The notes: generated by a model from the letters alone, not told the origin. A DNA stretch of 46,052 bases from a virus (IMGVR_UViG_2671180885_000005); one strand, 5' to 3'; counted from the first letter of the stretch, positions 6,576 to 44,829 are shown. A program made the numbers and translations.

Positions 6576-6851
6576 TCAGGAAACAGTTGGCTGATGCTCT
6601 TCGAGTGCGACTTTCTGACCAATTTTCTGAAATGTGCTCTCCGAATTTGGACAAATAGAAAAAGGCCATTTCCATTCAGGGTCTGATGGAAATACTTCAG
6701 CCTGTTCCAAAGCACGGTGTAAAGAGAACACAACTCCAGCCATAATCTGATGTTTCCCATTGGTCCAGCTATCGCCGCTCTGATCTACAGGAGCGGCTAT
6801 GTCGTATGACCAAACGACTTCACCACTATTGTTTAAAATCTGGACTTTCAT
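6576..6851 (-). CDS. hypothetical protein (91 aa)
   Basis: ORF with GGAGG SD before the ATG at 6851, immediately after the upstream minus-strand gene; its 3' end overlaps antisense with the plus-strand ORF 6413..6658, so only one may be real. Confidence 0.45.
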   Translation of the reverse strand: MKVQILNNSGEVVWSYDIAAPVDQSGDSWTNGKHQIMAGVVFSLHRALEQAEVFPSDPEWKWPFSICPNSESTFQKIGQKVALEEHQPTVS

Positions 6852-6859
6852 TTTGTTCT

Positions 6860-7063
6860 TTAACCTCCAGATTTCCGCGCATCTAAAGGCGCATTCTCAT
6901 TTGGTGTGAACTGAATAGTTGTGCTGATATTGATTAATGCCCCGACACACAAGACTACGCACTCAGAGCAGATAGCAACTTCATCTTTTCCGCCTTTGGC
7001 GATGATTTTTTTTGCCTGCAGCTCGTTTGCGCTACAAAACGAGCATGTGAAATAACGGTTCAT
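6860..7063 (-). CDS. small protein with ClpX-type C4 zinc-finger motif
   Basis: MNRYFTCSFCSANELQAKKIIAKGGKDEVAICSECVVLCVGALI resembles the ClpX N-terminal zinc-binding domain (CSFC...CxxC); start uncertain between 7063 and 7081. Confidence 0.55.
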   Translation of the reverse strand: MNRYFTCSFCSANELQAKKIIAKGGKDEVAICSECVVLCVGALINISTTIQFTPNENAPLDARKSGG

Positions 7064-7168
7064 TTGCGCTCTCTTACACATAGTATTTAACGAATCATCC
7101 GGTCATTCATACGCCACCGGCGGCTACTTCGTGGGCGTCCTGCCTGTTCGTTATCTTTGATATAAAAT

Positions 7169-7182
7169 CTAACTTAACTTAG
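7169..7182. promoter_or_regulatory. candidate OL operator (CTAAC-N4-CTTAG palindrome)
   Basis: 14-bp near-palindrome CTAACTTAACTTAG in the intergenic region downstream of the repressor gene; same motif as the two sites between cI and cro. Confidence 0.4.
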
Positions 7183-7247
7183 TTATTATGGCAAGAGAAA
7201 ACACCAAACTTTTCTTAGTTCGGTGCCTTAGTTAGAGAAGAGAGGTC

Positions 7248-7874
7248 TTAGAGTTCGTATTGAACTCCTTTGACTACACCAATGATAAGGCAATTACCAT
7301 TGATAGGGATGTTGGGATACCGAGGATTTAATGGCACTAAAAACTTTTGAGGGCCATCGATGACTAATTTTTTTACTGTAGCTTCGTTTGTTCCATCAAG
7401 TCGAGCGATGACTATTTTTCCATGACGAGGTTCTGCATCTGGATCTACAATCACTGTTGCGCCTTCTGGTATTGTTGGGAGGCCATTAGGGTTAGTCATG
7501 GAGTCACCTTTAACCTCTAATGCAAATGAGTTATCACCAATCTTTAATGATGTATCTACCCACTTGTCCACTTCACTAAACACTTCTGCTGCCCTGCACT
7601 CAGTAAACTGCCCAGCCTGAACCCACGATATTACAGGAACTCTGCGCATGTTTGTGACGAGTTTGCCTTCAAACTCAGCACCATAAAGAATGTAATCTAT
7701 TGACGTATTGAAGAACTTCGCTAATTTCGAAAGTGCCTCCCCACCAGGGGTATTGATGTCTTTCTCCCAGTACCCCACAGCAACGTCGCTTACTCCACAA
7801 AATTTACCCAATTCTTTCTGGGACGTTCTGGTAACTCTTCTCAGAGCTTTTATACGCTGACCAACCGTTTCCAT
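7248..7874 (-). CDS. cI: CI-like prophage repressor (HTH-XRE plus S24 LexA-like peptidase domain)
   Basis: N-terminal HTH (QKELGKFCGVSDVAVGYWEKD), C-terminal S24 autoprotease motif (GDSMTNPNG...K); divergent from a cro-like gene. Confidence 0.9.
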   Translation of the reverse strand: METVGQRIKALRRVTRTSQKELGKFCGVSDVAVGYWEKDINTPGGEALSKLAKFFNTSIDYILYGAEFEGKLVTNMRRVPVISWVQAGQFTECRAAEVFSEVDKWVDTSLKIGDNSFALEVKGDSMTNPNGLPTIPEGATVIVDPDAEPRHGKIVIARLDGTNEATVKKLVIDGPQKFLVPLNPRYPNIPINGNCLIIGVVKGVQYEL

Positions 7875-7896
7875 AGGAGCACCATTTTTTGAATTG

Positions 7897-7910
7897 CTAA
7901 GTAATCTTAG
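7897..7910. promoter_or_regulatory. candidate OR operator site 1 (CTAAG-TAAT-CTTAG perfect palindrome)
   Basis: Perfect 14-bp palindrome in the cI–cro intergenic region. Confidence 0.45.
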
Positions 7911-7945
7911 TTTTTATTGACCAAAGATAGATTTGTAATTAGCAT

Positions 7946-7959
7946 CTAACAAAACTTAG
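7946..7959. promoter_or_regulatory. candidate OR operator site 2 (CTAAC-AAAA-CTTAG)
   Basis: Second copy of the same motif 36 bp from site 1, just upstream of the cro SD. Confidence 0.4.
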
Positions 7960-7971
7960 TTTGGAGGGCGT

Positions 7972-8172
7972 ATGACAACTGACGATATCGAAAGCTACTT
8001 CGGCAGTATTGAGAAAGTTGCTGCTTTTTTCGGCATAACAACTGAAGCCGTTTATCAGTGGCGAAACCGTCCGGGCCAGTTAATTCCAAAAGGACGTGCA
8101 GCAGAAGCTGCATATAGAACTTGCGGACGGTTGCCATTTAAACCTGAGCTTTATGAAAAATCTAATGGATAA
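7972..8172 (+). CDS. cro: Cro-like / YdaS-like HTH regulator
   Basis: 66-aa ORF divergent from cI, SD GGAGGG before the ATG; HTH segment FGITTEAVYQWRNR. Confidence 0.75.
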   Translation: MTTDDIESYFGSIEKVAAFFGITTEAVYQWRNRPGQLIPKGRAAEAAYRTCGRLPFKPELYEKSNG

Positions 8173-8761
8173 ATCGATTAACAGAAACCACAGAACGATG
8201 AGGCTAACCGTGGGTAAGCATCACTGGAAAGTAGAAAAACAGCCTGAGTGGTACGTGAAAGCTGTCAGAAAAACTATCGCAAAGTTGCCGGGTGGTTACG
8301 CTGAAGCAGCTGACTGGCTGGATGTAACAGAGAACGCATTATTTAACCGCCTTCGTGCCGATGGCGATCAGATTTTCCCGCTGGGATGGGCAATGATTTT
8401 GCAACGTGCTGGTGGAACTCACTTCATTGCTGACGCTGTGGCGCAGTCTGCAAATGGCGTCTTTGTGTCTCTTCCTGACGTCGAGGATGTGGACAACGCC
8501 GATATTAACCAGCGTCTGCTGGAAGTCATTGAACAGATCGGCAGTTATTCAAAACAGATTCGTTCAGCAATCGAAGACGGTGTAGTGGAACCGCATGAGA
8601 AGACAGCAATTAACGACGAGCTGTATCTCTCAATTTCGAAGCTGCATGAGCATGCAGCACTGGTCTACAAAATCTTTTGCATTTCAGAAAGTAATGACGC
8701 CCGCGAGTGTGCAGCTCCGGGCGCCGTGGCGTGTCGTGACTGTGGAGAAACTAACGCATGA
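8153..8761 (+). CDS. YdaT/CII-like regulatory protein (putative)
   Basis: Immediately follows cro in the cII position; resembles the YdaT family that follows ydaS in Rac-like prophages. Start ambiguous (8096 GTG, 8153 ATG or 8165 ATG). Confidence 0.5.
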
Positions 8762-9096
8762 ACAGTTTAACAACACACTACCGTCGCTCGCAACTGATTG
8801 CGCTTCCTGTACCGGGTGGAAAAGCGAAGGTGGAGTATTGCTATGCAGTGAATGTACCAGGTGACAGGGAAATTGTAACCCACAGCTTTGCAGAGTGGGC
8901 TGTGGGTGATTTCAACCGGCAGAAGGAGACAGTCCTTTGCGACAAGTTAACCGCTGGTTCAAAGATCACTACGGAGTGCCCGTCAGAGTCATTCGTTGGG
9001 AGCCGGAAACACAACGGGTTATCTACCTCCGTGAAGGCTATGAGCATGAGTGCTTCAGCCCGCTCGAACAGTTTCGTCGTAAATTCAGGGAAATAG
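8758..9096 (+). CDS. hypothetical protein (112 aa)
   Basis: ORF start overlaps the upstream stop (ATGA), suggesting translational coupling; no recognisable family. Confidence 0.5.
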
Positions 9097-44380: not shown

Positions 44381-44829
44381 GTACCCTCCAGTGTGATATC
44401 ACATCTGTCCGATGCTTTCAAAAGTATAAATGAACCATGATGATTTGGCATCTGCAAGGTGACTGTTGACTGGTTTTTTGCTGATTTTTTAATGATAAAG
44501 TAGTGATTACTAACTGATTAGTAAGTGATTAATGGCTGGTTGCCTCCTGTGATTTTTCTGCCTCTGGTAAATTGGGGGAGAGTACTGATCAACTCACCAC
44601 TCTGAATAATTTTCATGATTGCACTCTACAAAGTTTCGACATCCGTCAAATTGTAACGGTCAGAGAACAGCGTTACACGAGGTTTTCCGTATCTATGCAT
44701 TCTTAGTTGGGTAGCTCAACTGCTCCTTCCAGATCTTTTTTTACGTCACACCCCATTCATGTGGAGGAGAAGGCGTGAACAATTAGTTATCGCCTGCTCC
44801 GGTGCTCTTCTCGCAATGGGACACTCAGC

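Follow-up and report, generated by a model that had tools for sequence, protein, structure and literature searches.

The repressor gene in the viral DNA analysed here (IMGVR_UViG_2671180885_000005; referred to as the window, 46,052 bp in full) is flanked by copies of a CTAAG-N4-CTTAG palindrome, and it is highly probable from sequence comparison that these palindromes are the operators that serve the lysis-lysogeny switch in a lambdoid prophage belonging to the P22 c2/phage 21 cI lineage. By this comparison the system falls within the lineage but is predicted to possess a different immunity; the switch is of a well-known kind, with a specificity that is uncharacterised. Literature searches using the site strings, the mEp460 operators and CTAAG/CTTAG operators returned no description of these operators, and the only published CTAAG/CTTAG palindrome found was the C-box of C.Csp231I (PMC9638921).

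A repressor and a Cro protein of the P22/21 lineage

The two regulatory genes of the region are the following:

7248-7874, minus strand: cI-type repressor gene, 208 aa; Pfam domains HTH_3 (38.4 bits) and Peptidase_S24 (96.7 bits)
7972-8172, plus strand: cro, 66 aa; P22_Cro (PF14549), 42.8 bits against a cutoff of 30.2

The presence of both HTH_3 and Peptidase_S24 domains confirms 7248-7874 as the repressor gene, as the earlier note had proposed. Rightward of cro, a gene for a CII (CP76)-type regulator is found, followed by one for a replication protein. Over residues 2-201 (96% of its length), the repressor displays 47.3-48.8% identity to the P22-type repressors (ES18, P22 HT105/1) and to the repressor of phage 21. 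A search of the PDB matched the N-terminal domain to chains of the P22 c2 N-terminal domain (1ADR, 2R1J and 3JXB; E about 5e-10) and the C-terminal domain to that of lambda cI (E 7e-28). The motifs VQAG (Ala87-Gly88), GDSM (Ser125) and KK (Lys168) align with Ala111-Gly112, Ser149 and Lys192 of lambda cI, and these motifs of the cleavage site and the Ser/Lys dyad are invariant across the repressor family, as is the helix-turn-helix. Given the homology within the lineage and the aligned cleavage and catalytic motifs, the repressor is predicted to be an SOS-cleavable member of the P22/21 lineage. Cro shows 31% identity to the P22/21 Cro proteins and shares their helix-turn-helix residues G, I, A, V, Q and W. 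The recognition helix of the repressor reads SDVAVGYW and that of Cro TTEAVYQW.

Palindromic sites flanking the repressor gene

The earlier note had described two copies of the palindrome in the cI–cro intergenic region, one perfect (7897-7910) and one with a single mismatch (7946-7959), together with a third copy downstream of cI (7169-7182). Direct read-out of the sequence and a pattern search verified all three, the downstream copy also carrying one mismatch. Together with two further sites, the putative operators are:

7897-7910: putative OR3, CTAAGTAATCTTAG, perfect palindrome with 0 mismatches; adjoins cI; 21.2 bits
7922-7935: weak candidate for OR2, CAAAGATAGATTTG, 3 mismatches; inside the spacer of the predicted PR
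7946-7959: putative OR1, CTAACAAAACTTAG, 1 mismatch; directly follows the -10 of the predicted PR; 21.5 bits
7169-7182: putative OL1, CTAACTTAACTTAG, 1 mismatch; lies in the spacer of the predicted PL and takes in the first 3 nt of its -10; 22.0 bits
7205-7218: putative OL2, CAAACTTTTCTTAG, 2 mismatches; upstream of the -35 of the predicted PL; repeat family D1

The pattern with at most one mismatch has four matches in the window compared to 0.80 expected, and none of 100 dinucleotide shuffles gave four. Three of these matches fall in the short intergenic regions on either side of the repressor gene, and the 46 kb contain exactly three copies of the core CTAA-N6-TTAG, namely those in OR3, OR1 and OL1. 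Seven of the 24 CTTAG/CTAAG pentamers of the window are clustered in positions 7082-7971, which make up 1.9% of its length. The scores in bits are those of a position weight matrix (PWM) built from 18 distinct site sequences, with 50 shuffled windows as the null, whose maximum averages 13.9 bits and peaks at 18.1 bits. OL2 scores 16.4 bits, which is inside the shuffle range and is also partly circular, since OL2 is among the matrix's own input sites; OR2 scores 11.3 bits. The fourth match to the pattern (44693-44706; CTATGCATTCTTAG) breaks the invariant core and at 12.2 bits remains below the mean shuffle maximum, and was rejected as a chance occurrence.

OL2 was exposed by de novo repeat finding, in which 7159-7184, 7195-7220 and 7936-7961 form one family (D1). 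This changes the reading of the additional half-sites that had been noted in this region: both CTTAG pentamers (7214-7218 and 7227-7231) are present, and the first, instead of being a degenerate half-site, is the right half of the conserved 14-mer that constitutes OL2. The second finds no support as a site, given that the corresponding 14-mer (7218-7231) has three mismatches in its left half and a centre just 13 bp from that of OL2, with the pentamer kept in close relatives only. A further CTTAG, at 7247-7251, shares bases with the stop codon of cI and is ATTAG in phage LLS; this pentamer was likewise rejected as an operator. Rfam searches returned nothing relevant to the operator finding.

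Promoters and layout in comparison to P22 and phage 21

A consensus promoter scan over 6800-8300 identified three promoter-like sites versus 2.9 in shuffled sequence, which is no excess. One of the three lies within the coding sequence of cI; the remaining two are the sole intergenic ones, and both overlap or abut operator sites:

7194..7166, minus strand: predicted PL, -35 TTGCCA (7194..7189), N17, -10 TAGATT (7171..7166); 9 of 12 matches
7917-7945, plus strand: predicted PR, -35 TTGACC (7917-7922), N17, -10 TAGCAT (7940-7945); 9 of 12 matches

The -35 of PR is identical in all 14 loci; in most relatives, TAATAT is found as the -10. OR1 covers the predicted PR start site, and after it come the Shine-Dalgarno sequence GGAGG and the ATG of cro; on the other side of the intergenic region a GGTG Shine-Dalgarno sequence precedes the cI start codon. 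The same scan shows no leftward promoter in OR. OR3 probably overlaps PRM, the position of which we infer. By hand, two indistinguishable PRM candidates can be picked: one with a -10 (TAAGAT) inside OR3, the other composed of TGGTCA (7923..7918), N17 and TAGCAA (7900..7895).

As reference operators we used OR1-3 and OL1-3 as annotated in the GenBank records of phage 21 and ES18, which are of the ATTTAAG-N4-CTTAAAT type. With P22 and the window aligned at the -35 of PR, both show an OR3 core whose start lies 20 bp ahead of this element and an OR2 core that begins on its last base and occupies the spacer; the -10, the OR1 core directly after it, the Shine-Dalgarno sequence and cro follow in the same order. 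The centre of OR2 is 25 bp from that of OR3 and 24 bp from that of OR1 (25/23 bp in P22/21), which places OR1 and OR3 49 bp apart, and the centres of OL1 and OL2 are 36 bp apart (35 bp in P22/21). In both systems OL1 occupies the spacer and -10 of PL and OL2 lies beyond the -35; P22 PL, read from ES18, is TTGACC-N17-TAAATT and has the same layout as PL in the window. Overall, sites and predicted promoters agree with the annotated P22/21 layout to within 1 bp.

The sites themselves also resemble those of P22/21 in being imperfect even-length palindromes with the axis between base pairs, of the general form xTAAG-N4-CTTAx and with an A/T-rich centre. However, the half-site core is CTAAG here and TTAAG in P22/21, and the ATT at the outer end of the 18-bp site of P22 is not conserved, so that the site is effectively one of 14 bp. 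The specificity of P22/21, with an ATTTAAG half-site and an SNVAISQW helix, was thus not what we found: the core starts with C in 18 of 18 sites, and the SDVAVGYW helix of the window repressor differs from SNVAISQW at four of eight positions (Asn to Asp, Ile to Val, Ser to Gly and Gln to Tyr). Further differences concern the cI start, which abuts OR3 in P22 but lies 22 bp away in the window, the weaker OR2, and OL3, for which no counterpart was found in the window at the position where P22/21 have this site.

Judged by its sequence alone, OR2 is at chance level: 3 of 10 positions are mismatched, its 11.3 bits compare to a mean shuffle maximum of 13.9 bits and are exceeded by the unrelated match at 44693 (12.2 bits), and most relatives have a weak right half here (ATTGG or ATTTG). 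These observations favour an OR with two sites only (OR1 and OR3), in which 7922-7935 would be a mere promoter spacer and the switch would be simpler than that of P22 or lambda. We consider this arrangement unlikely, albeit one to be taken seriously, as 7922-7935 lies at the P22/21 OR2 position to within 1 bp and a random 14-mer of OR composition reaches three or fewer mismatches with a probability of 0.004 per position, which is also the chance that applies to a position specified beforehand. Moreover, the counterpart of this site in Rahnella (CTAATAAAGATTAG) matches the core at 8 of 8 positions, that in mEp460 (CTAAGATAGATTGA) has a perfect left half, and the unusual left half ACCAAA is common to OR2 and OL2 of the window. 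Position, the near-consensus versions in Rahnella and mEp460 and the left half shared with OL2 argue for retaining 7922-7935 as a weak candidate for OR2, with a putative operator function. The OR/OL arrangement suggested in the earlier note is supported by the layout of P22/ES18 and 21, by the overlap with promoters, by conservation across genera and by the loss of the motif upon module exchange, whilst the number of sites needs to be corrected: OR most likely contains three sites and not two, and OL contains at least two.

Conservation in relatives and covariation with the recognition helix

A scan of viral contigs with the cI protein yielded solely loci with 99-100% identical cI, of which 72 contigs were used for the analysis of micro-variation; diverse relatives were drawn from genome contigs and from phage LLS. 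Across the 72 viral contigs, the 14-mers of OR3, OR2 and OL1 are invariant and OR1 varies at position 5 only, a position that is already off-palindrome, with the flanks holding most of the polymorphism. In phage LLS (cI 90% identical at the amino acid level, DNA 76%), OL1 and OR3 are unchanged; OL2 and OR1 keep their half-sites, with the exception of position 5 of OR1, and show altered spacers (TTTT to TAAA and AAAA to CAAA, respectively). The sites recur at matching positions in eleven further loci, with cI 63-90% identical, from Enterobacter, Kosakonia, Kluyvera, Serratia, Rahnella and Providencia. In the motif search in related prophages that the earlier note had recommended, relatives in seven other genera were seen to share the recognition helix and to keep the half-sites, with spacers and flanks varying.

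At the level of individual sites, OR3 is conserved in 14 of 14 aligned loci and OL1, spacer included, is invariant in 12 of 14. In the relatives, OL2 keeps its half-sites CAAAC/CTTAG with the spacer changing from TTTT to TAAA, and OR1 keeps the core CTAA/TTAG with any of the four bases at position 5 and a variable spacer. Among the 18 distinct sites, positions 1, 3, 4, 11, 12 and 13 are invariant, positions 10 and 14 each depart in a single site, position 2 has T in 15 sites and A in three, and position 5 takes all four bases; the four central positions are A/T in 66 of 72 cases and the N4 spacing is found in 18 of 18. Overlapping promoter elements, and not repressor binding, could be partly responsible for the conservation of OL1, of OR1 and of the stretch from OR3 to the -35.

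The half-site is seen to change together with the recognition helix. The repressor from Providencia, at 64% identity, has the same SDVAVGYW helix, and CTAA...TTAG is present at the four strong operator positions, whilst P22/ES18, phage 21 and the Hafnia phage yong1 combine the SNVAISQW helix with operators of the TTAAG type. mEp213 has another helix-turn-helix and unrelated repeats. A natural module exchange is provided by the Shigella phage SfIV, which matches the window at 7088-7152 (86%) and 8186-8900 (99.6%) with a different cI/cro in between. The flank matches delimit the following feature:

7153-8185: exchangeable immunity module (OL, cI, OR, cro)

In the swapped module of SfIV there are no matches to CTAAG-N4-CTTAG even when up to two mismatches are allowed, and SfIV carries its own TGTAC-N7-GTACA palindromes. 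With both flanks shared, another cI/cro and the motif gone, the motif travels with the repressor/cro module 7153-8185.

These data also bear upon the notion that the repeats have no operator role and are due to chance or are a by-product of A/T-rich promoter sequence. The regions are indeed A/T-rich, and two of the sites overlap or abut -10 elements that would be conserved anyway. Nonetheless, we attach hardly any probability to this notion: the frequency of the motif was not reached in any shuffle and its core is exclusive to three sites in 46 kb, OR3 is conserved without overlapping any element of PR, the half-sites are kept while the spacers vary, and the motif is missing from the SfIV module in spite of the same flanks.

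Comparison to other known systems

The operators of phage 434 (ACAA-N6-TTGT) are 14 bp in length; in each half, four invariant outer bases are followed by a variable fifth base, and the four central bases are not contacted. The sites in the window follow the same scheme, with positions 1-4 and 11-14 nearly invariant, position 5 free and an A/T-rich centre. However, the half-site is CTAA as opposed to ACAA, and in the PDB search the N-terminal domain of the repressor matched P22 c2 and not 434; the immunity is not the same. In P22 and 434 repressors the operator centres are non-contacted and read indirectly (PMC3317979), and the A/T-rich, non-covarying centre of the sites described here fits such a mode of recognition.

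Lambda and the window share divergent cI and cro genes, a three-site OR with a spacing of approximately 24 bp, OL and OR flanking cI, and homologous cI C-terminal domains in which the Ala-Gly site and the Ser/Lys dyad are present. The N-terminal domains, on the other hand, are without detectable sequence similarity, and the fold of lambda Cro is different. Operators of lambda are 17 bp long with the dyad axis passing through the central base pair (PMC6649833), unlike the 14-bp sites in the window with their N4 centre and an axis between base pairs, which are consequently not operators of the lambda type. In case of Cro, a recognition code has been described in which Ala at H3 and Gln at H6 are paired with A at +5 and G at +6 (PMC6649833). 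The Cro of the window (Ala H3, Gln H6) fits this code on a half-site xCTAAG, provided that, in a register of our own choosing, it is numbered like TTTAAG of P22.

The closest likeness in the half-site itself is to the C-box of C.Csp231I, CTAAG-N5-CTTAG, which is bound by a dimeric protein (PMC9638921). With the same half-sites, one may ask if the palindromes in the window are mainly bound by another regulator such as a C.Csp231I-type C protein instead of by cI and Cro. This appears extremely improbable. The pentamers are identical but the spacing is not, being N4 in all 18 distinct sites and N5 in the C-box, and the C-box resides in the promoter of a restriction-modification controller gene, a context that is absent from the window: the neighbours of the palindromes are cI and cro, with no restriction-modification system or C gene adjacent. 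The DNA-reading residues of the C protein (A33, R34 and Q37) are unlike SDVAVGYW, and the motif moves with the cI/cro module and covaries with the recognition helix of cI. Due to the different spacing and context, we take the likeness to the C-box to be one of motif only.

Proposed mechanism of the switch

In the mechanism that we propose, the 14-bp CTAA(g)-N4-(c)TTAG sites would bind dimers of the 208-aa repressor, and Cro, by analogy, would use operator sites too; physical binding, the preferences of each protein for individual sites and cooperativity are inferred here from sequence. As OR1 and the weak OR2 cover the PR start site and spacer, repressor bound there would block transcription of cro. 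OR3 would serve in autoregulation of cI and in the shut-off of cI by Cro, for which it is likely to be the first target. At OL, repressor bound to OL1 (spacer and -10 of PL) and OL2 (upstream of the -35) would block early leftward transcription. The LexA/lambda-type Ala-Gly site and the Ser/Lys dyad of the repressor imply that SOS-induced self-cleavage should release the switch, with RecA-stimulated cleavage at Ala87-Gly88 inducing the prophage.

Two more speculative consequences can be drawn from the recognition helix and from the half-sites. Gln at H6 makes central base contacts in the complexes of P22 c2, 434 and N15 Cro; with Tyr in place of this Gln and Gly in place of Ser at H5, the contact pattern of the window repressor is possibly unlike that in any solved repressor-DNA complex. 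In addition, the half-sites are identical to those of C.Csp231I-type C proteins, so that such proteins and the prophage switch might interfere with one another; such interference has been reported between C.Csp231I and the repressor of the Rac prophage. That both consequences hold, a novel contact pattern as well as C-protein interference, is rather doubtful.

Significance and distribution

Whilst the understanding of how such switches work is unchanged by these results, the definition of the operators predicts which prophages are co-immune, and the repressor, Cro, PR and PL are parts ready for use that are orthogonal to those of lambda, 434 and P22. The change from TTAAG to CTAAG, along with four helix changes, furthermore adds a natural specificity variant to the P22 c2 recognition problem. 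The module is widespread in E. coli: 517 of 5,426 complete genomes (about 10%) contain it at a query coverage of 80% or more. Salmonella, Citrobacter, Enterobacter, Klebsiella and Raoultella have annotated repressor homologues at 83-92% identity. In the phage collection searched, repressors with at least 99% identity were found in four phage records only, including vB_EcoM-689R6, vB_EcoS-569R4 and mEp460_4F5, and LLS was the sole phage record of this collection with a repressor at 80-90% identity.

Mosaic junctions and flanking elements

7152/7153 and 8185/8186: mosaic junctions of the immunity module, from the comparison with SfIV
7088–7152, minus strand: conserved block of about 65 nt between the predicted leftward promoter PL and the first leftward ORF
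6860–7081, minus strand: first ORF downstream of PL, encoding a 73-aa protein with a ClpX C4-type zinc finger match

Comparison with the Shigella phage SfIV, in which both flanks are common with the window and the cI/cro genes between them are different, placed the borders of the immunity module at two mosaic junctions, and an identical two-piece match pattern was obtained from the SfII, SfV and PhiR29/PhiR49 phages. Approximately 900 E. coli genomes gave no more than a partial match to our query, and in most of these genomes the match fell on the block at 7088–7152 (query positions 7–71, approximately): this block is conserved in numerous E. coli prophages irrespective of immunity type, and SfIV retains it at 86% identity despite its different cI/cro.

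Within the block lies a hairpin with a 5-bp stem (CCGGT and ACCGG, separated by 12 nt), for which relatives show stem variants that are fully compensatory (CCCGA/TCGGG, CCCCA/TGGGG and CCTGG/CCAGG), with both-sided changes at three of the five stem pairs among the relatives compared. An Rfam search with the block returned no match. One possibility is that the block serves the early-left transcript as a nut-like element or a leader RNA. As for the 73-aa protein, it matches PF06689 at 37.4 bits (Pfam); other genes occupy its position in relatives sharing the immunity module, and homology of phage vB_EcoM-689R6 to the window begins only at 7088.

Asymmetry of the operator half-sites

7178, 7214, 7227, 7906 and 7955, plus strand: CTTAGTT heptamers in the immunity region

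The immunity region holds five of the seven CTTAGTT heptamers of the window, all five being plus-strand copies. Each of the four strong operators (OL1, OL2, OR1 and OR3) has its perfect half-site on the right-hand side of the 14-bp CTAAG-N4-CTTAG palindrome. Of the 18 distinct sites pooled from the window and its relatives, 17 have C at position 10, whose symmetry mate, position 5, is nevertheless free. Half-site orientation is identical in OL and OR, where a mirrored arrangement might have been expected.

The cI start region

In P22/ES18 the c2 ATG abuts OR3, whereas here 22 bp (7875–7896) separate the cI start codon from this operator. Ahead of the start codon a GGTG (CACC on the plus strand) is conserved, which is likely the Shine-Dalgarno sequence. 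A consensus promoter scan of OR for the maintenance promoter of cI located none.

Further sites in the window and in a relative

44693–44706: fourth pattern match, CTATGCATTCTTAG, in an intergenic gap
1369–1444: tRNA-Thr (CGT) gene near the window's left end

The match at 44693–44706 was rejected as an operator: the invariant CTAA core is broken in it, and shuffles attain higher scores than its 12.2 bits. It is probably due to chance. The tRNA-Thr gene may mark the prophage attachment site. Around the cI homologue of Serratia aquatilis (locus L089), we found a degraded OL1 (ATTAACTTAA), a weakened OR1 (CTAATTTAAATTAG) and a deviating start region of cro: this looks like a prophage switch that is decaying or rearranged.
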